Positions 4,608 to 63,507 of a stretch of 64,000 nucleotides of DNA are shown one piece after another; within the stretch, counting starts at the first letter, position 1; each line of letters starts with the position of its first letter. The position numbers and the translations under genes were made by a program. The stretch comes from Patescibacteria group bacterium. Its GTDB lineage: Bacteria > Patescibacteriota > Microgenomatia > JAMCZE01. The stretch spans positions 1,358 through 65,357 of the forward strand of contig JAMCZE010000004.1 in NCBI GenBank assembly GCA_023485845.1. The letters run 5' to 3'. The notes beneath the pieces were generated by a model. That model did not search any database. It had not been told where the DNA came from and saw nothing but the letters and a program-made list of their open reading frames with translations.

Positions 4608-5989
4608 TTATCATTTCCATTTTCTTCCGGTTTTTCCGTTTTCCACAGCTGTTTCATTGGACGATGGATGAGGATTTTTGGAGTTATCTGCCGCAAAACA
4701 TCGCCACCGGCTATCATTTCCCGGCGATCGGTGGCCACATCGGCGGCACCGGCCTCTATTCCGGCCCGACGTTTATCTATTTGATGGCCATCCCCGCTAA
4801 AATTTTTTCTGGTAACCCCTTGGGGTTTGGAATTTTGGTGGCGGCGATCGGAGTGTTGACGGCCTATCTAATGTATCTGGTGGGGCGCAGAATGTTTGGT
4901 CTGGCGGTGGGCCTGCTGGCCTCGTTTTTATACTCTTCCTCTTTTCTGATGGCCATTTTTGACCGGCACTATTGGAATGCCTCCCTGACTCCTATCCTGT
5001 CTCTGTTAACTATCTGGTTCGTTTGGGAAGTCCACCAGAAACGTCTCAAATTCGTTATCCCTTTGGCCCTGGAATTGGTGCTGGCCTTTCATGCCCACGG
5101 AACGGGGATGGCACTGCTTATTTTCACTGCCTTGGCCTGGATTTTTTTCCGATTGCCGGTTCGGAGTCGTTGGGTGGCGGCGGGAGTGGGAATCTTTCTC
5201 TTGTTTCAATTGCCGCTGGTTTTCTTTGACGTCCGGCATGACTGGCAAAACACTCGGGCCCTGGCTTCCTATCTGACCACCAGCAAAGGAGGAACGGTGC
5301 CGCTGACTGCCCGAGTGGGGAATGTGGCCCAGGGTTTTGTCTCTGCCGGTTCCCGGCTGGTCTATTTTCCCGCCAAAGACCTGGCCATTGAACAAACGCT
5401 GGGATTGGCTCCCCAATATGCCGCCCTTAAGGGCCAGGCGCCCCTTTGGGCCAGCGCCTTTTTTGCTGTGGCTTTGCTGGCCGCTTTCTTTCTCCCACAA
5501 GCCAGAATGATGCTTCTTTTGGTTGGCTCAACTTTGGTCGGGCTGTTGATTTATAAAGAAAAGATTCCGGAGTATTTTTTTAGTCCCACGTTTGTCCCGT
5601 TATTTTTTATCTTTGCCCTCTTTTTAAAACGGATCGCCCGGCCGTTAACTGTTTTATTTCTTATAATATTTTTCTGCCTTAATCTAAATAATTTGCTGAC
5701 AGTCAAACACACTTTTGGCTATCCCACCCGGCTGGCGGCGGTGCAGGAAGCAATCGCGCAAGTGGGGAATAAACCCTTTGTCCTGGAGGCTAAGTGCGCC
5801 GGCTTTTGCCAGCTGTATGGCTTTCGCTATCTGTTCACCTATTTGCACCACGAACCGGTGGCTTCTTATGTTGACTCCACTTTTCTTTGGCTCTATCAGG
5901 ACCGGTTGCCAAAAGTTGCCCCGCAAAAAAAAGTTCTGTTGAATATGGCTGATGGCAAGGTCAATGTTTATGTTTCTGATTATCGCTAG
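4574..5989 (+). CDS. ArnT/PMT-like (GT39/GT83-type) membrane glycosyltransferase
   Basis: Hydrophobic N-terminus, loop with HFPAIGGHIGG...FIYLMAIP, many TM helices; start at internal ATG (MGKKISAVG) overlapping the upstream gene end. Confidence 0.6.
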   Translation: MGKKISAVGTVIIISIFFRFFRFPQLFHWTMDEDFWSYLPQNIATGYHFPAIGGHIGGTGLYSGPTFIYLMAIPAKIFSGNPLGFGILVAAIGVLTAYLMYLVGRRMFGLAVGLLASFLYSSSFLMAIFDRHYWNASLTPILSLLTIWFVWEVHQKRLKFVIPLALELVLAFHAHGTGMALLIFTALAWIFFRLPVRSRWVAAGVGIFLLFQLPLVFFDVRHDWQNTRALASYLTTSKGGTVPLTARVGNVAQGFVSAGSRLVYFPAKDLAIEQTLGLAPQYAALKGQAPLWASAFFAVALLAAFFLPQARMMLLLVGSTLVGLLIYKEKIPEYFFSPTFVPLFFIFALFLKRIARPLTVLFLIIFFCLNLNNLLTVKHTFGYPTRLAAVQEAIAQVGNKPFVLEAKCAGFCQLYGFRYLFTYLHHEPVASYVDSTFLWLYQDRLPKVAPQKKVLLNMADGKVNVYVSDYR

Positions 5990-7259
5990 CGTTATCTATT
6001 TCATTTCCCGCGGCTGGAATCTGCTGTCCCTGCCGGTGTTTATCGATGAGGCCATATATCTGCGCTGGGCCCAGGACATTATTCATCATGGTTTAATTTG
6101 GGTGTCTTTTTCCGATGGCAAAGAGCCGCTGTTTATCTGGGTGTTGGCGCTTTTTTCCAAATTTATTGCCGACCCGCTTTTGGCCGGGCGGCTGGTGAAT
6201 GTGGTCTCCGGCTGGGGGTTGATGATGGGTGTTTATCTGCTGGCAAAACGATTGCTTAACCAAAAGGCGGCCATTCTGGCGGTGATTCTATATCTCACCA
6301 GCCCGTTTATTCTGTTCTATAACCGGATTGCCTTGCTGGATAATTTTCTGGTTTTTCTGGGGTGCTTTTATTTGCTTTTCCTGGTCAAAAAAAAGCATTT
6401 TTTGGCCGGGGTGTTTCTCGGTCTGGCTCTGATCACCAAGACTAATGCCTTCATTTTTCTGATCGCCCTGCCGTTTTTTTGGCCGGCGCCATCGTTCTTT
6501 CTCGGGCTGGGGCTGGTCTATCTGCCGGTGTTTTTTGCCCCGGGCTACCACAATGTTTTTTCTAAGGACCAAAGTGTTTTCCTGGCATTTTCTCCGGGAC
6601 TCTTCTGGCCGAATTTTAAGATGAGTTTGCGCGACTGGTGGCTTATCTATTTCGGAGCGATTCCTCTTTTGGCGGCCCTTTTGGGCAGTGTCCAGTCGGT
6701 TTTTTTGGCGGCCCTGCTTTTTGGGCCCTGGCTGGTGGAGGCGGCCGTCGGCAAGATTTTCTTTCCTCGCTACCTATTGTTTATGGCCATCCCCGTTTTT
6801 CTTCTGGCGGCCAATTTCCTCCAGCGGCTGCCGCGAAAATTATTAATTGTGTTTTTTCTAATCGCCGTTGCCCAACCGCTGGTTTTATCCAGCTGGATTT
6901 TAAAAGATGTTGCCAGTGCGCCGATTCCGGTGGTGGAGCGGTGGCAATATCTGGAAGGCTGGCCGGCCGGCTATGGCAGTGACCAGCTGGTTAGCTTCCT
7001 GCAGATAAAAGCGAAACAAAAGTCCATCATTGTTGTCACGGAAGAGTTTGGCTTGAATGAAATTCTAAAACTTAAATTTTATGATGATAAAAACGTCACC
7101 GTTAAAACTTTTTCCGGCCTTAACGACCCGATTGCCGGGGACTATCTGGCGCTGACCTACTATTCTCAACCGTCGCCGATCTGGCCGGTGCGGGAAATCG
7201 GCAGCGTCTGTAAGGTACAATGTAAGAATACCATTCGCCTTTATGAAATTACGCGCTAG
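5952..7259 (+). CDS. ArnT/PMT_2-like membrane glycosyltransferase
   Basis: FIDEAIYLRWAQD (DE motif in first periplasmic loop, as in the GT39/83 ArnT family), multiple TM helices. Confidence 0.65.
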   Translation: MARSMFMFLIIASVIYFISRGWNLLSLPVFIDEAIYLRWAQDIIHHGLIWVSFSDGKEPLFIWVLALFSKFIADPLLAGRLVNVVSGWGLMMGVYLLAKRLLNQKAAILAVILYLTSPFILFYNRIALLDNFLVFLGCFYLLFLVKKKHFLAGVFLGLALITKTNAFIFLIALPFFWPAPSFFLGLGLVYLPVFFAPGYHNVFSKDQSVFLAFSPGLFWPNFKMSLRDWWLIYFGAIPLLAALLGSVQSVFLAALLFGPWLVEAAVGKIFFPRYLLFMAIPVFLLAANFLQRLPRKLLIVFFLIAVAQPLVLSSWILKDVASAPIPVVERWQYLEGWPAGYGSDQLVSFLQIKAKQKSIIVVTEEFGLNEILKLKFYDDKNVTVKTFSGLNDPIAGDYLALTYYSQPSPIWPVREIGSVCKVQCKNTIRLYEITR

Positions 7260-10545: not shown

Positions 10546-11645
10546 AGATTGCTTTTCTAAGTTTCTACAGCGGCCACGTTGCCCGGGGGGTGGAGACCTA
10601 CGTCCATGAACTGGCTAACCGCCTGGCGGCTAACCACCAGGTGACAGTTTGTCAAGGTGGTCCCCGACTTTCAGATGCTAGATATAACGTTAAAACAATT
10701 CCAGTTCATGTTAATTGGGAAAAAATAAACGGACTTCGCCATCTATCAACTTTAATTATTTTTGACCTTAGTTTTTCTAATATGGCTCGGCGATTCTATT
10801 TGGATTTTTGGAGCCGGGCTCAGGCCGAGTTTGCTAAAAATAGCTTGGCTGTCATAGATGCAGACACCGATATTATTGTGAGTGCTGGATCGGGCTGGGT
10901 TAGTCTGTTTGCCCGACTTTGGTGTTGGCGTCATAAAGCCAAATTAGTGATTGCCGGGCAATCAGGTCCTGGTTGGGACGATCGGATTAACCTTTTTTGT
11001 CGACCGGATGTTTTCATCGGTCTAACTGACTACCAAGTAACCTGGGCTCGACAAAATGGTTTTGGGGCCAAGGTTGTTAAAATTGCTAACGGGGTTGATT
11101 TGAAAAAATTTAATGCGAAAACCAAAAGAGCAGCACTTAACCTTCCACGGCCAATTATTCTTTGTGTTGCAGCCCTGGATCCTGGTAAAAGAGTGGGCTT
11201 AACGATTAGGGCGGTTGCAAATTTGGCCAAGGGGAGTTTGGTCGTGTTAGGGAAGGGAAACCTTAAAGAGGAACTCGATCGCTTGGCTGCTAGACTTCTT
11301 CCCGGGCGTTACCTTAATCTATTCGTCAGTCATGACCAAACCCCTTCATATTACGCTGCCTGTGACTTAGTCACTATGGTGCCTCCAAAGACTGAGTCTT
11401 TTGGTATCGTTTTTTTAGAAGCAATGGCTTCCGGTAAAGCTGTCGTTACCTCGGATGATCCTCCGCGGCGAGAAATAGTCGGGCTGGCTGGCCTCTTTGT
11501 TAATCCGGAAAGCTTGTCAAATTACACAGAGGCTTTGGAGAAAGCCTTGACCATTGATTGGGATAACATGCCTCGACACCAGGCAGAAAAATTTTCTTGG
11601 GACGAGATTGCCAAGCAGTATGAGAGTCTAATTAGAAATTTGTGA
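10542..11645 (+). CDS. GT4 glycosyltransferase
   Basis: MKIAFLSFYSG..., C-terminal GT1 motifs FLEAMASGKAVVTSD; ATGA overlap. Confidence 0.8.
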   Translation: MKIAFLSFYSGHVARGVETYVHELANRLAANHQVTVCQGGPRLSDARYNVKTIPVHVNWEKINGLRHLSTLIIFDLSFSNMARRFYLDFWSRAQAEFAKNSLAVIDADTDIIVSAGSGWVSLFARLWCWRHKAKLVIAGQSGPGWDDRINLFCRPDVFIGLTDYQVTWARQNGFGAKVVKIANGVDLKKFNAKTKRAALNLPRPIILCVAALDPGKRVGLTIRAVANLAKGSLVVLGKGNLKEELDRLAARLLPGRYLNLFVSHDQTPSYYAACDLVTMVPPKTESFGIVFLEAMASGKAVVTSDDPPRREIVGLAGLFVNPESLSNYTEALEKALTIDWDNMPRHQAEKFSWDEIAKQYESLIRNL

Positions 11646-15517: not shown

Positions 15518-16542
15518 AGATCGGTATTGACATTAGCCAAGTTGCTTATCCCGGAACCGGGGTGGCCACCTACACCAAAAATTTGGTGGAAAATCTGCTG
15601 CAAATTGATAAAAAAAATAACTATGTCCTTTTTGCCGGAACACTGCGCCAGCGAAAAATCTTCAACCTGTCAGGGTGGAACCCTGACATCTGGCCGCTAC
15701 CGCCGACCGTTCTAGATTTTTTGTGGAACCGGCTTCATGTGCTGCCGGTGGAGAATTTGATCGGCAACGTTGACGTGTTTCACTCCAGTGACTGGACCAT
15801 GCCGCCGACGAAAGCAAAGAAAGTGACGACCATCTTCGACATGGTTGTCTATAAATATCCCCAAACGTCACATCCCAAAATTATTGCTACTCAAAAACGG
15901 CGGTTGGCCTGGGTCAAGAAAGAAGCGGACGCGATCATCACCATTTCCGAAGCTTCCAAAAAAGACATTGTGGAAATTTTAGGAGTGGCTCCGGAGAAAG
16001 TTAAAGTCATTTATCTGGCGGCGGGAGAGGAATTTAAGCCGGCTGGACCGAAGTTTTCCCATCCCAAACCTTATCTCTTGGCAGTGGGGACTCAGGAGCC
16101 GCGAAAAAATCTTGTTAATCTGATTGCGGCTTACAAAAAGTTGTCAACAAAAGATTTGGATTTAATCATTGTGGGGAAACATGGTTGGGGGCAAGACGCT
16201 CCTGTTGCTGGGGTCATTAATCTTGGCTACGTTGCCCCGGGAAAGCTGCCTGATCTTTATCGCGGGGCAAAATGTTTTGTTTACCCCAGTCTTTATGAGG
16301 GTTTTGGGGTGCCGGTTCTGGAAGCCATGGCTTGCGGTTGTCCGGTGGTCACCTCCAATGTCGGCAGTTTGCCGGAAGTGGGCGGGGACGGTGCCACTTA
16401 TGTTGACCCGCTTAATGTTACCGATATAGCGGATAAACTTGCTCATGTTAAAAGAACCGGCAGAGAGATGGCTCAGGCTAAAAAGTTTTCTTGGGAAAAG
16501 ACCGCCCGGGAAACCCTGAAAGTTTATGAAGCACTGGCTTAG
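15514..16542 (+). CDS. GT4 glycosyltransferase
   Basis: MKIGIDISQVAYPGTGVATY..., [28 protein letters not shown]; ATGA overlap. Confidence 0.8.
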   Translation: MKIGIDISQVAYPGTGVATYTKNLVENLLQIDKKNNYVLFAGTLRQRKIFNLSGWNPDIWPLPPTVLDFLWNRLHVLPVENLIGNVDVFHSSDWTMPPTKAKKVTTIFDMVVYKYPQTSHPKIIATQKRRLAWVKKEADAIITISEASKKDIVEILGVAPEKVKVIYLAAGEEFKPAGPKFSHPKPYLLAVGTQEPRKNLVNLIAAYKKLSTKDLDLIIVGKHGWGQDAPVAGVINLGYVAPGKLPDLYRGAKCFVYPSLYEGFGVPVLEAMACGCPVVTSNVGSLPEVGGDGATYVDPLNVTDIADKLAHVKRTGREMAQAKKFSWEKTARETLKVYEALA

Positions 16543-17557
16543 TGTTTTGCCGATTATTCTGCTGACGGCATTTGTTTACCGCGCCTCTTTTACTGCCCCG
16601 TTTTTTCAGGATGACAAAATTCTTCTTAATTTGGCAACCGGCGGTAATCTCTTTGCCCCGATTCCTAATTTTCCCTACCGTCCGATTTCTCAGGCCCTGT
16701 TCTATAAAATTTGTTTTTTCTTTTTTGGCTTAAACCCACTTGGCTATCATTTGGCGCTATTTGCTTTCTTTGTCGGCACCGTGATTTTAGTTTTTTTGCT
16801 GGCGCAGCGATTTTTGGATTCTTGGACGCGGGCTTGGTTGGTTGCTTTTTTTTATGCCCTTAATGTTTCTCTGTTTGCTAACTTTTTCTGGATTGCCACT
16901 TCTTATTTCTCAATCGGGGGCTTCTTCTTTTTCCTGACGATTTGGCTCTATTTCCAGAAAAATGCTTGGCCGGCTTTGGTCTCTTTTATTCTGGCATTGG
17001 GAAGTAATGAAATTGCTTTTGTTCTGCCGTTAATTCTGATTATTGCCAGCTGGTTTCAGAACTACTGGCCAAAAAAGTTAGGTTTGTTTGTGGGCTTGCT
17101 CCCAATTTTTTTGGGGTTACGTCTTCTAGTTGGTTTGCCAACGGCCGGTGACTATTCTGTCGGCCTTAATTTTTTGTCCCCGCTGCGCTGGTATAGTTTG
17201 CGGGCCTTTAATCTTCCTGAAGGGGTAGATCGGGCCGGGCCGGTTTTTTATTTATTGTTTGTCGCTTTGCTAGCGATGTTATTGGTTTCTCTTAAGAATC
17301 GTCGATTGCTAATTTTTGGAGCCGGCTTCTTTTTGGTTGGGGCCCTGCCCTTTTTCTTCCTTCCGGCTCACATGTCGTCATACTATTTAACGATTGCTCT
17401 TTTTGGACCGGCATTGATCTTCGGTGGCCTGGTGCGGGCAAAGTTAGTGTCACTTTTTGTCGGTGTTTATTTGCTACTGACTATTTTTGGATTGGATTTT
17501 CTCTCTCGCACCCACTGGATTATTCTCAAAAACACTGGTCCCATCGGCCAATTCTAG
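16526..17557 (+). CDS. Polytopic membrane protein, putative GT-C glycosyltransferase
   Basis: 343 aa, TM-rich; 3' end overlaps the convergent minus-strand gene by 84 nt. Confidence 0.55.
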   Translation: MKHWLSVLPIILLTAFVYRASFTAPFFQDDKILLNLATGGNLFAPIPNFPYRPISQALFYKICFFFFGLNPLGYHLALFAFFVGTVILVFLLAQRFLDSWTRAWLVAFFYALNVSLFANFFWIATSYFSIGGFFFFLTIWLYFQKNAWPALVSFILALGSNEIAFVLPLILIIASWFQNYWPKKLGLFVGLLPIFLGLRLLVGLPTAGDYSVGLNFLSPLRWYSLRAFNLPEGVDRAGPVFYLLFVALLAMLLVSLKNRRLLIFGAGFFLVGALPFFFLPAHMSSYYLTIALFGPALIFGGLVRAKLVSLFVGVYLLLTIFGLDFLSRTHWIILKNTGPIGQF

Positions 17558-18739
17558 AATTTGGCGGTAGTTGGCCGCAATATACGCTTCTAAATATTTT
17601 GGCTGATAACAAATGCCTTTTGATTGCTGGCAGGGATTATAAACAATAAAGCGGGGCAGTCGGTCCTTCAACCCGGTAAGAATTCTCTCCTGATTGCTGG
17701 GGTAATCCATCGTCCAAGGAGTGGAGGGAACGAAAAAATCACTGGCCGGCAAAGTGTTTGTTAAGAAATAAAGGTGGTCCCAGGTGTTTATGATCAGGAT
17801 CTTTTCTCCGGCAGGAACTACTTTTTGGATTTGCGAAGCGATATCCAGGGTGGCCGGGTCCATAAAGCGAACCGGGAGATTATGGCTAGTAATCACCAGC
17901 CGCAGGAAGATGATTAGCATAGGAAGATAGAAAATAAAGGCGAGGGGTAAAGAAGTAAATAACATGGCGACCAAAGGCAAGGCCGGTTGGAGATGAAAAT
18001 ATTCAAACCGGGTGAAAATTCCCAGGGCAGCACCAATGGCCAGAAGTCCTAATTGACGTTGTTTCTTAAGCAAAAGGGCAAAAAATGCCGGAGCCATGAC
18101 CGATAGAGTAATTAGCGACTGGCTAATGGTCGGCCATTGGATTTGTAGGGGATAACGGGCGTGGAAAGTCAGAGTGTATTTAACGGCGCTGTCAAAAAGG
18201 GGTGGCCAGGCAAGAACTAGCAAGGCTGGCAGGATGCCAAGGACCATGGTGGGGCGGCGGTGAAAAAGAAGAAAAATGACAATAAAATAGATAGCCGTCT
18301 GCTTAGTTAAAAACGCCAGTCCCAAAATTACTCCGGCTATAAGGAATTTTTTGTTTTGGGTGGCAAGTATGGCGGCTAGAAATAGCGGGGCTAGCAGTTG
18401 GTCCACCCAAGCCCCGTTGCCGCCGAAAAGAATTTGTAAAGGGACATAAATTAAGACCGGCAGGAGCTTTTTTCCAGCCGTCAGCCATAATAATAAATCA
18501 GTGATAATTACGATTGCATAGGAAAAAATTCGCAGTGATAGAACAGAGATGCCGGTAAAGGAGTAGAAAGTGCTTAACAGTTTCCAATAAAGCGGGGTGT
18601 AGATTAAGAAGATGTTTTGGTAATATTCAAAACCGTGGAGATTAAGATAAGGCCAGACCAAATTCTCCGGCCAGGCTGTAAACTGAAGTTGGGAAAGGAG
18701 TACAATGTGAATGACAATGAGAAAGAAGATCTTCTTCAT
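17474..18739 (-). CDS. Polytopic membrane protein, putative GT-C glycosyltransferase
   Basis: 421 aa, TM-rich with a C-terminal soluble region; the only minus-strand gene within the + strand cluster; ATG at 18739. Confidence 0.6.
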   Translation of the reverse strand: MKKIFFLIVIHIVLLSQLQFTAWPENLVWPYLNLHGFEYYQNIFLIYTPLYWKLLSTFYSFTGISVLSLRIFSYAIVIITDLLLWLTAGKKLLPVLIYVPLQILFGGNGAWVDQLLAPLFLAAILATQNKKFLIAGVILGLAFLTKQTAIYFIVIFLLFHRRPTMVLGILPALLVLAWPPLFDSAVKYTLTFHARYPLQIQWPTISQSLITLSVMAPAFFALLLKKQRQLGLLAIGAALGIFTRFEYFHLQPALPLVAMLFTSLPLAFIFYLPMLIIFLRLVITSHNLPVRFMDPATLDIASQIQKVVPAGEKILIINTWDHLYFLTNTLPASDFFVPSTPWTMDYPSNQERILTGLKDRLPRFIVYNPCQQSKGICYQPKYLEAYIAANYRQILELADGTSVFENNPVGAREKIQSKNSQ

Positions 18740-19838
18740 TTTTTTGATTCTTCTATTATCTTTAGCACTTCGGCTCTACCGCTTCAATGATTTGTCGTCT
18801 TTTGGTTTTGACCAGGCACGGGATGCGGGAATTGAACGGCAGATGATTCTTACCGGCAAGCCGACATTGTTGGGTCCGCAGACGCTAATCGGCGATAAAA
18901 CCATCTATTTTGGGCCGTGGCACTATTATTTAATGGCCCCGGCGTTATGGCTGGCACATTTTGATCCTGTCGGTCCGGATTTATGGACTGTAGTTCTCGG
19001 GGTGGCCACCACGGCCGTTATTTTTGCCATCTCTGGCAGTGCTCTGGCAGCGCTTTTTTACGCAGTTTTTCCCCTAGCAGTGATTTATAACCGTTTTGCC
19101 TGGAATCCGAACACGGTTCCCCTTTTTTGTGCCTTAGCATTGCTTTTTTTTAGCCGGAAGCGCGATTTTTTGGCCGGTTTGTTCTTCGGACTAGCGGTCC
19201 AGCTGCATCCGACGGCCCTGCTCTTGGTTTTGTTTTTTTTGCGCCGATTCCGATGGCCGATTATTCTTGGTGCTTTGGTGGGCTTAAGTCCAATTATTGT
19301 TTTTGATTTTCGCCACCAGTTCCTTTATCTCCATGGTTATCTCAGCCTCTTCTCGGCTAATTGGGCCTATCGGGGATTCAACTGGCACTATTTCCTGTGG
19401 CTTTTGCCGGGATTATCTCTTTGGGTTGGTTCACTCAAGCCAAAACTGGCAGCCATAATAATTTTTTTGGCTTTTGCCGGGACGGTATTTTATTTAGCAT
19501 CCCAGCCGGCAGTTTTTGCCACTAGTCCGGCAACAATCAAGAAAGTAAGCAGCCTGATTGTCTCCGATCAAGATAATTCGGCGCTGCCATTTGATGTGGC
19601 CTCATTTTCTGACGCTGACACTCGGGCCACTGCCTATCGTTATTTTTTGGATCTGGCCGGCCTGACACCGTTGGGCGTTGGCGAATATTCGGTGGCTGAC
19701 CACATTTATGTCACCAGTTTTGCCGGACCAGAAAATGTTCTCTATAATAAGACTTACGAAGTGGCGTCGTTTTCACCGAAAAAAATTATCCGGATCGGGC
19801 AGGAGGGTAATTTATTTTTGTACCGGTTAGAAAAATAA
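18711..19838 (+). CDS. Polytopic membrane protein, ArnT/GT39-like N-terminus (LRLYRFNDLSSFGFDQARD)
   Basis: 375 aa, TM-rich; its N-terminus resembles the C-terminal domain of the 22060 gene. Its 5' end overlaps the divergent gene by 29 nt. Confidence 0.6.
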   Translation: MTMRKKIFFIFLILLLSLALRLYRFNDLSSFGFDQARDAGIERQMILTGKPTLLGPQTLIGDKTIYFGPWHYYLMAPALWLAHFDPVGPDLWTVVLGVATTAVIFAISGSALAALFYAVFPLAVIYNRFAWNPNTVPLFCALALLFFSRKRDFLAGLFFGLAVQLHPTALLLVLFFLRRFRWPIILGALVGLSPIIVFDFRHQFLYLHGYLSLFSANWAYRGFNWHYFLWLLPGLSLWVGSLKPKLAAIIIFLAFAGTVFYLASQPAVFATSPATIKKVSSLIVSDQDNSALPFDVASFSDADTRATAYRYFLDLAGLTPLGVGEYSVADHIYVTSFAGPENVLYNKTYEVASFSPKKIIRIGQEGNLFLYRLEK

Positions 19839-53900: not shown

Positions 53901-55052
53901 ATGCTGATTAAACCAGACCTAACCAGGTTTGCCAAAATTAAGGTGGTGGGAGTGGGCGGCGGCGGCGGAAACGCGGTGGCCTCCATGGTGAACGCCGGAA
54001 CCATTAAAGGTGTGGATTTTGTGGCCGTCAACACCGACGCCCAGGTGCTTTTAACTAATCCAGCAACCACAAAGATTCAGATTGGGGAAAACCTCACCCG
54101 GGGGTTGGGGTCCGGCGGCAGTCCGGAGATCGGCCAAAAGGCGGCGGAAGAATCGGCCAAAAAAATTGAAGAAAAAATTGCCGACGCGGATATGATTTTT
54201 GTGGCCGCCGGGATGGGCGGCGGCACAGGCACTGGCGCTTCCTCGGTGATTGCCGACATTGCCAAAAAAGCCGGAGTGCTCACGGTGGGGGTGGTCACCA
54301 AACCGTTTGCTTTTGAAGGGACGGCCCGCAGTGTTATTGCCGAAGAGGGGATCGCGACGTTAAAAGACAAGGTTGATGCTTTAATTGTGATCCCTAACCA
54401 GCGGATTTTGGAAACGGTGGACAAGAAAGTGACTCTTTTGGAAGCTTTCCGGATGGCCGACTCGGTGTTAACCGCTTCCGTTCAGGGTATTTCCGATTTA
54501 ATTGTCATGCCGGGACTGATTAACCGGGATTTTGCCGACGTTAAATCAATTATGGCCAATGCCGGCTCGGCCCTAATGGGCATTGGCATCGGGACCGGGG
54601 AAAATCGGGCGGGATCGGCAGCCCGGCAGGCGATTTCTTCCCCGCTTTTGGAACTGACGATTGACGGGGCCAAAGGGGTGCTGTTTAACATCATCGGCGG
54701 ACCGGATCTGACGATGGCGGAAGTGGACGAAGCGGCCAAGATTATTGCCAATGCCGCCGACCCCGATGCCAAGGTGATTTTCGGAGCCACCATTGATGAT
54801 TCGCTGGTTGATCAACTAAAAATCACGGTGATTGCTACCGGTTTTGATGAAAACCGCCAGCGGCTGCGGGAACTGCGCTATGAACGGCCGGTGGCGGCTA
54901 CTCCTACGGCTCCTGCCGTTGGCCAACGGCAACAAACACCGCCGGAACCGCCGGAAAAACCGGAACCCGAAGAACAACCGACCCCCGGTGTCCCGTTCGA
55001 TGAATTCGGCGACGAGTTCGACATCCCCGCCTTCTTGCGAAAAGGAAAGTGA
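53901..55052 (+). CDS. ftsZ: Cell division GTPase FtsZ
   Basis: GVGGGGGNAV and GGGTGTGA tubulin signature; C-terminal DIPAFLRK. Confidence 0.95.
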   Translation: MLIKPDLTRFAKIKVVGVGGGGGNAVASMVNAGTIKGVDFVAVNTDAQVLLTNPATTKIQIGENLTRGLGSGGSPEIGQKAAEESAKKIEEKIADADMIFVAAGMGGGTGTGASSVIADIAKKAGVLTVGVVTKPFAFEGTARSVIAEEGIATLKDKVDALIVIPNQRILETVDKKVTLLEAFRMADSVLTASVQGISDLIVMPGLINRDFADVKSIMANAGSALMGIGIGTGENRAGSAARQAISSPLLELTIDGAKGVLFNIIGGPDLTMAEVDEAAKIIANAADPDAKVIFGATIDDSLVDQLKITVIATGFDENRQRLRELRYERPVAATPTAPAVGQRQQTPPEPPEKPEPEEQPTPGVPFDEFGDEFDIPAFLRKGK

Positions 55053-55064
55053 TACAATTAACTA

Positions 55065-55379
55065 ATGATCGAGAAAATAACAGGGTATAGTTTATTAGCC
55101 GTGGGCATTGCGGCGATTGTGTTTGCCGCGTTTAATGTCTACTTCGTTTTTACCAAGCAAGCTCTACCGATTCAGGTTTTTAATTTCCCGGCGGTTTCCA
55201 TGGAACTGGTGCCGGGAACAAAGCCGGTGGAGCTGGTCTCCGCCGACATGCTCAACCAATCATCCAATCTTCTTGCCCACCTGCTCTTAATGGGTTTTAT
55301 CGCCAGCATTGGCCAAAAACTCGCTTCCTTGGGTGTCCAACTTCTCCGCCCGATTGTGGTGAAGGTTAAAGAGGGGTAA
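55065..55379 (+). CDS. Small membrane protein (2 TM helices), hypothetical
   Basis: 104 aa; TACAAT-like -10 just upstream. Confidence 0.4.
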   Translation: MIEKITGYSLLAVGIAAIVFAAFNVYFVFTKQALPIQVFNFPAVSMELVPGTKPVELVSADMLNQSSNLLAHLLLMGFIASIGQKLASLGVQLLRPIVVKVKEG

Positions 55380-55388
55380 AATTGCTTC

Positions 55389-58244
55389 ATGTTTAAGCCG
55401 GTTGATCCAAAAGTGAACTTTGCCGAAATGGAGAAGGGGATTTTGGCGTGGTGGGACCAAGCGGGGGTCGTTAATAAATACCTCCATAAAAACGATCAGG
55501 CAAAAAAAAAGTTTTCTTTTCTGGACGGCCCGATCACGGCTAATAATCCGATGGGTGTCCACCATGCCTGGGGCCGGACTTATAAGGACCTTTGGCAGCG
55601 CTACCACAATATGCTCGGAGAGAAAGGCCGCTTCCAAAACGGCTTTGACTGCCAGGGCCTTTGGGTGGAAGTGGAAGTGGAAAAGGAACTTGGCTTTAAA
55701 TCAAAGAAAGACATCGAAACCTACGGAATTGCCAACTTCGTGAACAAATGCAAGGAGCGGGTGATTAAATACTCCGGCATCCAAACAGAACAGAGCAAAC
55801 GGCTGGGCTATTTTATGGACTGGGACCATTCCTATTTCACCATGTCCGAAGAAAATAACTACGCGATTTGGAATTTTCTGAAAGTTTGCGCCGACCGCGG
55901 TTGGATCTACAAAGGACATGAATCCATTCCCTGGTGCCCCCGCTGCGAAACGGCCATTTCTCAGCATGAAATCCTCACCGAGGACTATAAAGAAATTACC
56001 CACGAGTCAATCATTTTGGAATTTCCGATTGTTGGCCATGACCGGGAGTTTCTTTTGGTCTGGACAACCACTCCTTGGACCATTCCCGCGAATATCGCCG
56101 TTGCCGTTGATGAAAAGCAAGATTATAGCCTGGTTAAAGGCGGGGACGGCAATAAATTCTGGTTGGCAAAAAACCTGGTTGATAGCGTTTTCAAAAACAG
56201 TCAGAAAGAGGTTTTAAAGACAGTTAAAGGCAGGGAGCTGGCGGGATTGAAATACACCGGGCCGTTCGACGATTTGGAAGCAGTGGCTAAGGCGGCCAAG
56301 GAAAATGAGACAAAATTCCACATTGTCGTGCCCACTGACGATCAAATAATGCCTATTTCCATGGAGGAAGGAACCGGTTTGGTGCACACAGCAGTCAGTG
56401 CCGGTGAAGAGGATTTTAAATTGGGGAAAAAGCTAGGTTTGCCGATGATTCCGGTGATTGCCGATAATGCCGATTATCTTCCCGGTTTAGGACGGTTTTC
56501 CGGACAAAATGCCAAAAAGAACCCGCGATTGATCCTCGATTATCTTGAAGAACGAGAAAAATCAGGTAAAGATACAGTTTTTTCAATTTTCTCTTACACC
56601 CATCGTTATCCCGCTTGTTGGCGGTGCAAAACGGAGTTGGTTTGGAAGGTGGCCGATGAATGGTATATTGCCATGGACCGGCCTGACAAAAGCGGGAAAA
56701 CACTGCGGGAGCAGCTTAAAACGGTGACAAAAAAAATAAACTGGCGGCCTGCCTTTGGTCTTGATCGGGAATTGGACTGGTTGGAGAATATGCATGATTG
56801 GCTGATTTCCAAGAAGAATCGTTATTGGGGCCTAGCGCTGCCAATTTATGAATGCCTCAAGTGCGGCCATTTTGAAGTGATCAGAAGTAAAGAAGAGCTA
56901 AAAAAGCGGGCCGTCAGCGGTTGGGAAAAATTTGAGGGCAACACTCCCCACCGTCCCTGGATTGATGAAGTGAAAATTAAATGCACCGGATGTGGAGAAG
57001 TTGTTTCCCGGATTTTGGATGTGGGCAATCCCTGGCTGGATGCTGGCATTGTGTCCGTTTCCACCATGCCGCAGGACTGGTTTCCGGCCGATTTTATCAC
57101 CGAGTCTTTCCCGGGCCAGTTTAAAAACTGGTTCTATTCTTTGATTGTGATGGGAATGGTGCTGCGAAAAACTAACCCGTTTAAAACAGTTCTTGGTTTT
57201 GGCACGCTTTTGGGGGAAGATGGCCGGCCGATGCATAAGTCCTGGGGCAACTCCATTGAATTTAACGAAGGGGCGGATAAAATTGGTGTTGATGTGATGC
57301 GCTGGATGTATGCCACCCACCAGCCGGAAGAGAACCTTTTGTTTGGCTACCGGGTGGCCGATGAAACCCGGCGCAAGTTTCATCTGATGCTTTGGAATGT
57401 TTACAACTTTTTCGTTACATATGCTAATTTATCGGGTTGGGATAATAGCTTCAAGAGACCACCTCTCTTGAAGCTGGATGAATGGATTCTGGTCCGATTG
57501 GAGGAAACGATCAATAAAGTGACTAAGTCCCTGGATCAATATGATGCCTATCGCGCCAGCACGGCCATTGCCGCTTTTGTTGAAGATCTATCATTGTGGT
57601 ATGTTCGCCGGAGCCGGGACCGGCTGGGACCGGAATTTTTCAATACCTGCTATCGGGTTTTGGTGACCTTATGCCAACTTCTGGCTCCGTTCACGCCGTT
57701 TATTGCCGAAGAAATGTATAAAAACTTGACCGGGGAGGAGAGTGTGCATCTCACAAAATGGCCACGAGCAGGAAAGCAGGAAAGCAGGAAAGCAGGAAAG
57801 CTAATTGAAGAAATGACACTAGTCAGGAAAGTTTGCGAGATTGGGCACGCCAAGCGCAAAGAAGCGGGGATTAAAGTGAGACAGCCGCTGGCGAAATTTA
57901 CAATTTTCAGCCCGCCTGCCGGACGGGCAGGTTCTCAATTTTCAATGAATGACCAATTGATCCAATTAATCAAGGACGAACTAAATGTTAAAGAAGTTGT
58001 TTGGAAAAAGGGGGAAGAATTAGCGGTGGAGTTGGATACAAAGTTGACGCCGGAGTTGGAGGCGGAAGGAAGAGCCCGGGAAATTGTCCGGCAGATTCAG
58101 GACGCGCGCAAAGAAGCGGGAACGGCGTTGGATCAAAAAATTAGCGTCACTTTGCCTGACTGGCCGGCGGCGTTTACAGACTACATTAAAAAAGAGACAT
58201 TAGCTATCAAACTCACAAAGGGGGACAAGTTTGAAATCGCTTGA
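55389..58244 (+). CDS. ileS: Isoleucyl-tRNA synthetase (type 2-like)
   Basis: FLDGPITANNPMGVHHAWG (HIGH region), GFDCQGLWVEVEVEKELG, WCPRCETAISQHE, MHKSWGNSI (KMSKS-like); 951 aa. Confidence 0.9.
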   Translation: MFKPVDPKVNFAEMEKGILAWWDQAGVVNKYLHKNDQAKKKFSFLDGPITANNPMGVHHAWGRTYKDLWQRYHNMLGEKGRFQNGFDCQGLWVEVEVEKELGFKSKKDIETYGIANFVNKCKERVIKYSGIQTEQSKRLGYFMDWDHSYFTMSEENNYAIWNFLKVCADRGWIYKGHESIPWCPRCETAISQHEILTEDYKEITHESIILEFPIVGHDREFLLVWTTTPWTIPANIAVAVDEKQDYSLVKGGDGNKFWLAKNLVDSVFKNSQKEVLKTVKGRELAGLKYTGPFDDLEAVAKAAKENETKFHIVVPTDDQIMPISMEEGTGLVHTAVSAGEEDFKLGKKLGLPMIPVIADNADYLPGLGRFSGQNAKKNPRLILDYLEEREKSGKDTVFSIFSYTHRYPACWRCKTELVWKVADEWYIAMDRPDKSGKTLREQLKTVTKKINWRPAFGLDRELDWLENMHDWLISKKNRYWGLALPIYECLKCGHFEVIRSKEELKKRAVSGWEKFEGNTPHRPWIDEVKIKCTGCGEVVSRILDVGNPWLDAGIVSVSTMPQDWFPADFITESFPGQFKNWFYSLIVMGMVLRKTNPFKTVLGFGTLLGEDGRPMHKSWGNSIEFNEGADKIGVDVMRWMYATHQPEENLLFGYRVADETRRKFHLMLWNVYNFFVTYANLSGWDNSFKRPPLLKLDEWILVRLEETINKVTKSLDQYDAYRASTAIAAFVEDLSLWYVRRSRDRLGPEFFNTCYRVLVTLCQLLAPFTPFIAEEMYKNLTGEESVHLTKWPRAGKQESRKAGKLIEEMTLVRKVCEIGHAKRKEAGIKVRQPLAKFTIFSPPAGRAGSQFSMNDQLIQLIKDELNVKEVVWKKGEELAVELDTKLTPELEAEGRAREIVRQIQDARKEAGTALDQKISVTLPDWPAAFTDYIKKETLAIKLTKGDKFEIA
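57768..57799. repeat. Tandem octanucleotide repeat (GCAGGAAA)x4 inside ileS (encodes AGKQESRKAGK)
   Basis: gcaggaaagcaggaaagcaggaaagcaggaaa. Confidence 0.85.
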
Positions 58245-62195: not shown

Positions 62196-62390
62196 TTATG
62201 CTGTTTTCTCCTTTTCCCACACAAAGATAGTGGCCCCAGTATTGCTAAGAGATTTTGAGACTTGTAATAAAAATTCTTCTAAGCCTTCGGCACTTAATGG
62301 ATCCATTTTCTCATAAGCCTCCTTAAGGCCTGCAGTTTTATTAATGTCCACGGTATGTATTTCTGGATGTTCGATATATCCTTGGGTCAT
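62196..62390 (-). CDS. Small hypothetical ORF (64 aa)
   Basis: Only ORF filling the gap between lepB and the tRNA-like element; no motifs. Confidence 0.2.
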   Translation of the reverse strand: MTQGYIEHPEIHTVDINKTAGLKEAYEKMDPLSAEGLEEFLLQVSKSLSNTGATIFVWEKEKTA

Positions 62391-62412: not shown

Positions 62413-62487
62413 TGGTGGACTCGGAAGGTGCCGCCCCTTCTGCCTCTCGAATGTGAATCGAGCGTTCTGCTGGTGAACTACGAGTCC
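62413..62487 (-). tRNA. tRNA-like cloverleaf, anticodon CAC (Val) if functional; non-canonical D- and T-loops
   Basis: Minus-strand read: GGACUCG-UA-GUUC-ACCAGCA-GAAC-G-CUCGA-UUCACAU-UCGAG-AGGCA-GAAGG-GGCGGCA-CCUUC-CGAGUCC-A-CCA. All four stems pair perfectly (7/4/5/5 bp); U8, U33, A37, discriminator and encoded CCA are present. The D-loop lacks GG and the T-loop lacks TUC. Confidence 0.45.
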
Positions 62488-62502
62488 GACTGCCATATTA
62501 TA

Positions 62503-63507
62503 TCAAGTTACTGACTCAATGACTCCTAGAACCTCTTTAGCGAATTTTTCCCAGGAGAAAAGTTTGGCGCGGGAGAGAGAGCGAGAACGCAGGCGAATGG
62601 TAAGTTTGGGATCAAGCATCTTTTCCATGGCGACAGCGATTTCGTTAACGTTCAAGGGATTAACGAGAAGACCGGCGTCACCGACCACTTCCGGTTCTGC
62701 CCCGTTTTTCCCCGCCACTGCGGGGCAACCGCAGGTCATCGCCTCAACTAAGGTTAATCCGAAGCCTTCAAATAATGAGGGCGAAACAAAGGCAGCGGCG
62801 TGGCTATAAAGGGCCGGCAGGTCTGTGTCGGAAACAAACCCCAGATTGATAACATCGGGGGTTTTTTTGATAGCCCGATCCGGCCAAAAGTCACTGCCGG
62901 CCAGGACTAATTTATAGCTAGGATGGCGTCGGTGAAACTTTTTGAAGGCGGCGATTATCCGGGGGACATTTTTGGTTTTTTTGAGGGAACCAATAAAAAG
63001 AAAATACTGGCCGGCAGTAATGCGTCGGCGGACTGGCTTAAAGATTGGATCCACTCCCTCATAGGCCACGGTGATTTTCTCCGGCGGTACCTGATAGATT
63101 TTAGTTAGCTGATTCTTAGTAAAAGTCGAAACCGCGATAATTTTTGTAGCCTTTGCGGCCGCTTGGCGGCTGATGCTTTGAATTCGTTGGGGATTAACAT
63201 AGTGCTGCGGGTATGTTTCAAACCCAAGATCATGAAAGATAACCACCGATGGACAAGGACAAAACACCGGCAAAGCTTGGCTAATACCTAAAAAAACATC
63301 CGGTCGGCGCCAAAGAAGGCTTAGGGGTAGTTCAAGATAGCGCCAAGCAAAAGACGGCCGGTCGTAAAGTCGGTACGTGTTTTTGCGGTCTAGCTGCTGC
63401 AACTGTCCCAGCAAATTTTTAGCCACACGATAGACGCCGACTTTTAATCGGTCGTCGGAAACGTTCAGGGGAGCAGCGTCAACGGCGATAGTCTTTGATT
63501 GCGTCAT
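62503..63507 (-). CDS. GT4 glycosyltransferase
   Basis: FEGFGLTLVEAMTCGCPAVAGKNGAEPEV. The track ORF starts at TTG 63516; the first ATG is at 63507. Confidence 0.8.
   Translation of the reverse strand: MTQSKTIAVDAAPLNVSDDRLKVGVYRVAKNLLGQLQQLDRKNTYRLYDRPSFAWRYLELPLSLLWRRPDVFLGISQALPVFCPCPSVVIFHDLGFETYPQHYVNPQRIQSISRQAAAKATKIIAVSTFTKNQLTKIYQVPPEKITVAYEGVDPIFKPVRRRITAGQYFLFIGSLKKTKNVPRIIAAFKKFHRRHPSYKLVLAGSDFWPDRAIKKTPDVINLGFVSDTDLPALYSHAAAFVSPSLFEGFGLTLVEAMTCGCPAVAGKNGAEPEVVGDAGLLVNPLNVNEIAVAMEKMLDPKLTIRLRSRSLSRAKLFSWEKFAKEVLGVIESVT

Follow-up and report, generated by a model that had tools for sequence, protein, structure and literature searches.

What is one to make of an element that folds as a perfect tRNA cloverleaf with the anticodon CAC, while its D- and T-loops seem to lack the nucleotides by which almost every tRNA is recognised? 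Such an element lies at 62413 to 62487, on the minus strand, of the 64,000-nucleotide stretch of Patescibacteria DNA presented above (hereafter, the window). The first-pass annotation of this DNA considered a highly divergent tRNA-Val, a tRNA-like regulatory or attachment structure and a tRNA pseudogene. The comparison with related loci described here favours a variant of the first option: read from its sequence, the element is a genuine and conserved tRNA-Val(CAC) gene with a non-canonical elbow. It is probably functional, as the counterpart, in a bacterium of the Microgenomates within the Candidate Phyla Radiation (CPR), of the canonical gene that relatives carry beside lepB. The identity of the gene, its synteny with canonical orthologues, its conservation, the covariation of its stems and the set of nucleotides kept or exchanged are observed.

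From 62487 to 62413, the minus strand reads GGACTCG T A GTTC ACCAGCA GAAC G CTCGA TTCACAT TCGAG AGGCA GAAGG GGCGGCA CCTTC CGAGTCC A CCA, where tRNA positions 1 to 73 correspond to 62487 to 62416 and an encoded 3' CCA to 62415 to 62413. The spacing is that of a standard tRNA (7/2/4/7/4/1/5/7/5/5/5/7/5/7/1, plus CCA), the four stems (7, 4, 5 and 5 base pairs) show Watson-Crick pairing at 21 of 21 positions, and U8, U33, A37, a 5-nt variable loop and the discriminator A73 are all present. The anticodon CAC (62455 to 62453) sits in the loop UUCACAU (62451 to 62457). This cloverleaf is also the minimum-free-energy fold of the sequence (-26.2 kcal/mol, z = -3.0), and re-reading the sequence bears out the geometry, stems, anticodon loop, discriminator and CCA described in the first pass.

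When a region of 301 nt is searched alone, the Rfam tRNA model RF00005 matches over its full length (positions 1 to 71) with 45.8 bits and E = 6.6e-9, above the gathering score of 29 bits. The earlier view that four perfect stems are not a matter of chance agrees with this score, which, together with the conservation of the element, rules out a chance fold. Detection by standard tools is nevertheless fragile. Over the whole 64 kb window, Rfam in gathering mode returns no tRNA match, presumably owing to loss at the speed filters, and ARAGORN with default settings reports no tRNA gene; with a 95% threshold (-ps95) or in mitochondrial modes (-mt), ARAGORN calls tRNA-Val(cac) at c[62413,62487], and at a 90% threshold this is still the sole call in the window. 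A clade-specific covariance model (R1), run with filters off, likewise finds a single tRNA-Val in the window (90.2 bits), the next match reaching 10.4 bits with E about 0.9. The deficit is shared by related forms, as RF00005 gives 63-72 bits to canonical alleles, 60.6 to the allele with the T-loop AUCAACA and 43-47 to those with A18 and G55. The unusual allele of L095 is dropped by the Rfam filters as well (E-value mode, 56 kb of loci), and default ARAGORN misses the gene in the window, L001, L002, L090 and L094. A sequencing or assembly error is discarded, given that the tRNA and its flanks are identical in three independent Logan assemblies of the same organism (L001-L003) and that near-identical alleles occur in other species. 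Of these assemblies, the L003 contig begins inside the D-loop of the tRNA (its position 1 equals window position about 62469), which would fit strain-level variation that starts at the tRNA and affects the glycosyltransferase side.

The nature of the element becomes clearer from its position. The LepB protein of the window is 75% identical to that of L004, a 950-kb contig of a metagenome-assembled genome (MAG), and about 49% identical to those of Candidatus Collierbacteria MAGs, and the host is a CPR bacterium of the Microgenomates. The lepB gene itself (signal peptidase I, Pfam PF10502; 61604 to 62152, minus strand) is a neighbour and not part of the RNA. In the relatives examined, a single tRNA-Val, of either orientation, is found upstream of lepB at a distance of up to about 2 kb, with the exception of L093, which has none nearby. 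Most of these orthologues are canonical and are detected by default ARAGORN, and a canonical tRNA-Val(CAC) stands beside lepB in L004-L008, L084, L086 and L088. On the evidence of these orthologues, the window element is the positional counterpart of an ordinary tRNA-Val(CAC). With model R1, each of 28 related loci yields one tRNA-Val and no more, which is either unusual or canonical but never both, and no second tRNA-Val is found in the window or within +/-8 kb of any locus. Of the surroundings given in the first pass, a lepB/parB block and glycosyltransferase genes, lepB is the conserved neighbour, whereas the association with glycosyltransferases is not conserved. A functional link to the latter was considered and rejected, the neighbours on that side being different in every relative.

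The alignment with these orthologues shows where the departure lies. The L004 gene reads GGACUUG U G GCUC AGUGGUA GAGC G UCCCG UUCACAU CGGGA AGGUC GAAGG UUCGAUU CCUUC CAGGUCC A and shares the T stem (GAAGG/CCTTC) with the window, while L084, with the D-loop ACUGGUA and the T-loop UUCGAUU, shares the acceptor, D and T stems. It is mainly in the D-loop, in the T-loop and towards the end of the variable loop that the sequences differ; outside these three loops, the window tRNA closely matches the canonical alleles (82% identity to L084 over 72 nt). Accordingly, of the initial description as a highly divergent tRNA-Val, the tRNA-Val part is upheld by the canonical orthologues at the locus, the model score and the compensatory changes, and the words highly divergent are an overstatement.

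Within the elbow, the D-loop ACCAGCA (62468 to 62474) aligns without gaps to the 7-nt loops ACCGGTA, ACTGGTA or AGTGGTA of canonical orthologues, which assigns its nucleotides as A14, C15, C16, A18, G19, C20 and A21. The variable loop AGGCA (62441 to 62445) comprises A44, G45, G46, C47 and A48, and the T-loop GGCGGCA (62429 to 62435) comprises G54, G55, C56, G57, G58, C59 and A60. Compared with the canonical form, G18 is replaced by A, U54, U55 and A58 are each replaced by G, and positions 59-60 become CA; the window tRNA keeps U8, A14, A21, G26, A44, G45, G46, U33, A37, the pairs G53-C61 and G19-C56, and a purine at position 57. In terms of the canonical elbow, therefore, positions 18, 54, 55 and 58 deviate, and G19, C56 and G57 conform. 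The claim that both loop signatures are absent is accordingly correct for G18, U54 and U55 (A58 being replaced as well) and incorrect for G19 and C56, which are retained together with the purine at 57. U54, Psi55, A58 and G18 belong to the most conserved nucleotides in biology and define the T-loop motif. A C15/A48 combination also stands in place of the usual R15-Y48 pair, but it was discarded as part of the remodelling, for it occurs with G18 in place in L084, which is fully canonical, and in L086, which has C55.

The window form is one of several in the clade. T-loops of the type UUCGAUU or UUCGACU accompany D-loops with GG in L004, L084, L096 and L102; the D-loop ACCGGUA is combined with UCCGACU in L086, with AUCAUCA in L091 and with AUCAACA in L100 and L101; the D-loop ACCAGCA is found with AGCGUCA in L092; and GGCGGCA is found with ACCAGCA or ACCAGUA in the window, L090, L094, L095 and L098. 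The T-loops UCCGACU, AUCAUCA, AUCAACA and AGCGUCA are thus intermediate forms in sister lineages. Wherever A18 occurs in these alleles, position 55 is G (five distinct sequences with two types of T-loop), and wherever G18 occurs it is U or C, while the combinations at 54/58 are U/A, A/U, A/A or G/G. This is what a coordinated change of tertiary partners would look like. The G19-C56 pair is invariant in 13 of 13 distinct sequences, and the anticodon loop, U8, A14, A21 and G53-C61 are likewise invariant or almost so. The anticodon is CAC in 12 of the 13 distinct sequences (UAC in L010), and the exact loop UUCACAU is common to 11 of them, L088 having G37.

Are these loops maintained, or are they merely tolerated in one genome? 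The D-loop ACCAGCA together with the T-loop GGCGGCA is also found in L090 (GCA_023380635.1), L094 and L095, and L098 combines the same T-loop with ACCAGUA, so that the unusual loops recur in at least four lineages besides the window. The neighbouring proteins of these genomes are only 52-82% identical to those of the window. Between the same loci, the 80-nt flanks are 45-60% identical, as compared with 54 +/- 4% in shuffled sequences, and the tRNA is 93-100% identical. A conservation that is bounded by the ends of the tRNA has the signature of purifying selection on the RNA, the unusual loops included, and not that of a recently transferred DNA segment. Within this group, both partners of pair 50-64 differ in a compensatory manner, A-U being found in the window but G-C in L090 and L094, and pair 5-68 alternates between U-A and U-G. 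The stems are kept in all 21 homologues, with 21 of 21 pairs in 20 of them and 20 pairs in L010. In the alignment A1, composed of the 13 distinct sequences, pairing is essentially 100% across the stem cells and 13 of the 21 stem pairs have changed on both sides. Its covariation score is 0.452, as compared with 0.174 in shuffles (none of 500 reaches 0.452) and with no more than 0.098 after sliding of the partners by 1-3 columns, and RNAalifold recovers the cloverleaf unaided. The search for the same element with compensatory changes in related genomes, which the first pass had proposed as a check, is in this way answered by L090, L094, L095 and L098 and by pair 50-64.

From a structural perspective, the tRNA elbow is a continuous stack, A58-G18-G57-G19-C56, whose exposed G19-C56 face is read by the ribosome (A, P and E sites), RNase P, T-boxes, valyl-tRNA synthetase (ValRS; PDB 1GAX), RNase Z and the CCA-adding enzyme (PMC4810234). 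In the window tRNA, the equivalent stack would be G58-A18-G57-G19-C56, still composed of purines plus C56. The outer platform (G19-C56 and the purine at 57) would remain intact, and the inner contacts would be exchanged, with A18/G55 in place of G18/Psi55 and G54/G58 in place of U54/A58; a C20-G55 pair is a further possibility, which U20 of L098 would still allow as a wobble. In its kept and replaced nucleotides, the elbow can thus be described as remodelled rather than lost, and the geometry given here for the new contacts is a proposed one. Modification would be affected as well. TruB requires 53-GUUYRANYC-61 (PMC7912444), for which reason the window T-loop cannot serve as its substrate, and with its present sequence the tRNA cannot carry m5U54, Psi55 or m1A58. 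Elsewhere in the same organism, about 8.5 kb past the tRNA-Val and outside the window, a tRNA-Thr(CGT) (L002, 1452-1524) has the T-loop TCCGATT, with C55 in place of the universal U55, and a normal GG D-loop, the orthologue in L093 having TTCGATT; this C55 hints that Psi55 is dispensable in the organism.

As regards expression, the tRNA-Val would be transcribed from its own extended -10 promoter. A promoter-like box, TGATATAAT (62497 to 62505, minus strand), has its TATAAT at 62502 to 62497, 9 nt before position 1, and 19 of 21 homologues, every unusual allele among them, have a perfect TATAAT at 9-29 nt upstream of position 1. The promoter call rests on this conservation, as a two-hexamer scan of the window tRNA found no -35/-10 pair, and a full sigma-70 promoter was accordingly discarded in favour of the extended -10 box. 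The TGA of TGATATAAT (window 62503-62505, minus strand) is both the stop codon of the upstream GT4 glycosyltransferase gene and the TGn of the extended -10, an instance of very tight gene packing. No terminator was found by scan after the tRNA, so that read-through into orf64-lepB is possible and orf64 could be co-transcribed with the tRNA. This 64-aa open reading frame (ORF), located between the tRNA and lepB (62196-62390, minus strand), has no Pfam match; the Logan assemblies of this organism list it among their genes, and it lacks a counterpart in L090, where the tRNA ends 46 nt before lepB.

Once transcribed, the tRNA would not need the addition of CCA, encoded in the gene, and would be charged by ValRS through A35, C36 and A73. 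These three nucleotides, the last being the discriminator, constitute the valine identity set according to work on E. coli and T. thermophilus. The window tRNA holds all three, and also G45. It would then read GUG, the commonest valine codon of the organism (546 GUG versus 67 GUA in the window); the preference for G over A in valine codons (0.89) is the highest of the eight four-codon families in the window, and GUG use in genomes with the unusual allele is at least equal to that in canonical ones. The codon read by the window tRNA is thus heavily used and not avoided. The kept outer pair G19-C56 and purine 57 would present the face read by the ribosome, RNase P, ValRS and the CCA-adding enzyme. 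That last enzyme measures from the elbow (PMC4810234). Three A18/G55 alleles (L095, L098 and L092) have no encoded CCA and need it, which argues that their elbow is still recognisable. An encoded CCA as compensation for an unreadable elbow is, by the same three alleles, not a rule and was rejected.

Taken together, transcription, charging and ribosomal use of the window tRNA are likely, although several observations weigh against them. A canonical tRNA-Val(CAC) is possible elsewhere in the genome, the view having covered about 74 kb of it. A neighbour-joining tree of seven concatenated proteins (2260 columns, 300 bootstraps) places the window beside L084, the carrier of a canonical allele, as its sister with 95% bootstrap, and the genomes with the unusual allele form a single clade in 1 of 300 replicates. 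Codon usage is indirect as an argument and is confounded by GC content (0.48 versus 0.40-0.45 in relatives), and GUG could be read by a tRNA-Val(UAC) instead. The association of A18 with G55 may reflect one single evolutionary event. Besides, destabilisation of the elbow slows translocation (PMC4810234), and a reduced or altered performance on the ribosome is plausible given the near-universal U54, Psi55 and A58.

Of these points, the incongruence between the allele and the protein tree means that the distribution is not accounted for by simple vertical descent of one essential gene. Similar signs come from other alleles, since that of L084 (6099-6170) is nearly identical to that of the distant L102 (8159-8230), and that of L088 (7893-7964) resembles Collierbacteria. 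The distribution may be due either to lateral exchange at the locus or to old paralogues with a second copy elsewhere in each genome, and it is mainly this possible second copy that limits confidence in ribosomal use. Lateral substitution of unusual and canonical forms for each other would itself argue for their functional equivalence. In a bolder version of the lateral account, the elbow is an alternative architecture that is not neutral and spreads laterally among Microgenomates, displacing canonical alleles at the lepB locus or being displaced by them; it would be selected for escape from a reader of the T-loop (a phage nuclease or a toxin that cleaves this loop) or for diversion of Val-tRNA to a non-ribosomal use, possibly with loss of T-loop modification enzymes. 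This proposal we regard as quite unlikely.

The paralogue account leads to another explanation, in which the tRNA is charged with valine but kept from translation, or is a spare, with the canonical copy elsewhere. It would explain the incongruent alleles through differential retention of two old paralogues, the loss of G18, U54, U55 and A58 resembles that of non-translational or orthogonal tRNAs, and genes for the cell envelope abound in the window (a glycosylation cluster and a dcw/Mur cluster). We still hold it to be unlikely, because the T stem GAAGG/CCTTC, which sets the affinity for EF-Tu, is the same as in the canonical L004 and L084, G19-C56 is kept, every locus has one tRNA-Val of one type or the other and never both, and GUG is heavily used. 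Moreover, no Fem, MprF or other aminoacyl-tRNA transferase domain appears among the ORFs of at least 230 aa scanned between 1.7 and 49 kb, and the neighbouring glycosyltransferases are not conserved (L090, L092 and L094). If the gene were instead a decaying pseudogene, a redundant GUG decoder drifting after takeover by tRNA-Val(UAC), this would fit the observed changes at the most conserved tRNA positions, the rejection by default ARAGORN and the Rfam score 15-26 bits below those of canonical alleles, and the several T-loop variants of the clade could mean relaxed constraint. This possibility, raised in the first-pass annotation, is very improbable and already largely refuted: the stems are intact in all 21 homologues and have undergone compensatory changes, the anticodon loop, U8, A14, A21, G53-C61 and G19-C56 are invariant or nearly so, the unusual loops are identical across genomes whose flanks are at random level and no conservation extends past the ends of the tRNA, the promoter box has been kept, and GUG is not avoided.

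An equally slight probability is given to a tRNA-like cis element, serving either a mobile island as its attachment site or the orf64-lepB mRNA as a leader or processing structure, which the first pass had also considered. The side of the tRNA away from lepB does vary between genomes, the L003 assembly breaks inside the tRNA, the want of a terminator would allow read-through into orf64-lepB, and the L090 tRNA ends just 46 nt before lepB. As an attachment site, the element finds no support in the window, where neither tRNA half has a second match with up to 3 mismatches, nor among the ORFs scanned, which include no integrase; its neighbours, too, vary between genomes. As a leader of lepB it would not be conserved, since the tRNA lies on the strand opposite lepB in seven relatives (L004, L005, L084, L086, L091, L092 and L094), and a mere hairpin signal would not need the full anticodon loop, A73 and CCA that are conserved. 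A phage origin was likewise rejected, with no match to the family pattern in IMG/VR and 5 matches to the T-loop pattern that lack the cloverleaf.

The functional tRNA-Val(CAC) favoured here can be placed among known tRNAs with altered elbows. Its nearest point of reference is the canonical tRNA-Val(CAC) of L004 and L084, with which it shares the dimensions of the cloverleaf, the anticodon loop, A73, U8, A14, A21, G26, G53-C61, G19-C56 and R57, as well as the locus beside lepB and the -10 box (and, in L084, the acceptor, D and T stems). It differs from this form by A18, G54, G55, G58 and CA at 59-60, and by 45.8 versus 63-72 bits. The tRNA-Pyl of Desulfitobacterium hafniense and Methanosarcina is likewise an elongator without the elbow signature, and it works on the ribosome. 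It lacks G18G19 and T-Psi-C and retains purine 57, and in D. hafniense position 55 is G (PMC1851642). tRNA-Pyl, however, keeps U54-A58 and loses 19-56, whereas the window tRNA keeps 19-56 and replaces 54-58, and the cloverleaf of tRNA-Pyl is altered (a 6-bp anticodon stem, a 3-nt variable loop and a 5-nt D-loop), whereas that of the window is standard.

Within bacteria, the non-proteinogenic (NP) tRNA-Gly of Staphylococcus (NP1, NP2 and NEW), whose defining features have been described (PMC4052509, PMC12256121), resemble the window tRNA in combining a standard cloverleaf with an altered D-loop GG. In these, GG18-19 is replaced by UU or CU (PMC4052509), so that both G18 and G19 are lost, while the window tRNA keeps G19. 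Their T-stem pairs are weak for EF-Tu (A49-U65 and A51-U63), unlike those of proteinogenic isoacceptors, while the T stem of the window is that of its canonical orthologues. They also coexist with proteinogenic isoacceptors and serve Fem peptidyl transferases, and neither a coexisting copy nor a Fem-type gene is found in the scanned region of the window. The eukaryotic initiator tRNA-Met has a purine-purine A54-A58 pair and A60 (PMC7912444), to which ATCAACA (L100 and L101) and ATCATCA (L091) come close in having A54 and A60, with A54/A58 in L100. It belongs, however, to another domain of life and to initiation, and the window form has G54/G58 with G55. Finally, metazoan mitochondrial tRNAs lose conserved nucleotides in the D-loop and in the T-loop, yet work in translation (PMC4810234), and the mitochondrial mode of ARAGORN accepts the window gene. 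They often lose whole arms or 19-56 and have co-evolved with altered ribosomes and RNase P, whereas the window tRNA has standard arms and retains 19-56. The known exceptions to the elbow, therefore, differ from the window tRNA in the contacts lost and in cloverleaf or context.

In the literature searched, no description of T-loop or D-loop variants in CPR tRNAs was found. According to a 2026 survey, which covered 95 complete Patescibacteria genomes, introns conceal some tRNA genes from standard tools (PMC13011429), and a term search of its text gave no occurrence of 'T-loop' or 'tRNAVal'. What the clade offers is a natural series under purifying selection (UUCGAUU, UCCGACU, AUCAUCA, AUCAACA, AGCGUCA and GGCGGCA), in which near-universal nucleotides are exchanged within an otherwise standard bacterial elongator tRNA and G19-C56 is fixed. 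It makes testable the idea that the machinery of translation and processing depends on the outer 19-56 platform rather than on the inner contacts of the T-loop, and its alleles are ready-made sequences for biochemical and structural work and for the design of orthogonal tRNAs. In practical terms, the gene escapes default ARAGORN and filtered Infernal, with the risk that CPR genomes are reported without a tRNA-Val(CAC), and such a false absence would affect inferences about decoding capacity and genome completeness.

Other features of these loci deserve mention. In L100 (a 1.5-kb contig), a fragment like the 5' part of another canonical tRNA (..GCTTAGCTCAGTGGTAGA..) lies directly upstream of the tRNA-Val, at about 1355-1395, in the position held by the promoter in L101, and may represent a scar of recombination or integration. 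Several relatives have two signal-peptidase I (S26) genes near the tRNA, the window having one; S26 genes near the tRNA are located at 7411-8579 in L086, at 5562-6113 and 7651-8244 in L091, and at 2249-3467 in L094. The isoleucyl-tRNA synthetase (IleRS) of L094 (7410-10418) is 37.6% identical to that of the window, as compared with 50-78% for adjacent proteins, and looks like a replacement by a different type of IleRS; L010 is similar (32.9%). No T-box was found upstream of ileS in the window (54800-55450), and in L092 a sub-threshold match to a T-box leader (44.2 bits, with a gathering score of 93) lies upstream of ileS at 10628-10766, on the minus strand. At the other end of the window, positions 1715-29885 hold a very large envelope-glycosylation cluster followed by a dcw/Mur cluster. 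Three consecutive long ORFs of the glycosylation cluster (16526-19838) have no Pfam match, and the cluster encodes at least 12 GT2 or GT4 glycosyltransferases, three PMT_2-type proteins, a 1043-aa Wzy_C-PMT_2 fusion, a flippase, DUF2142 and DUF2079.

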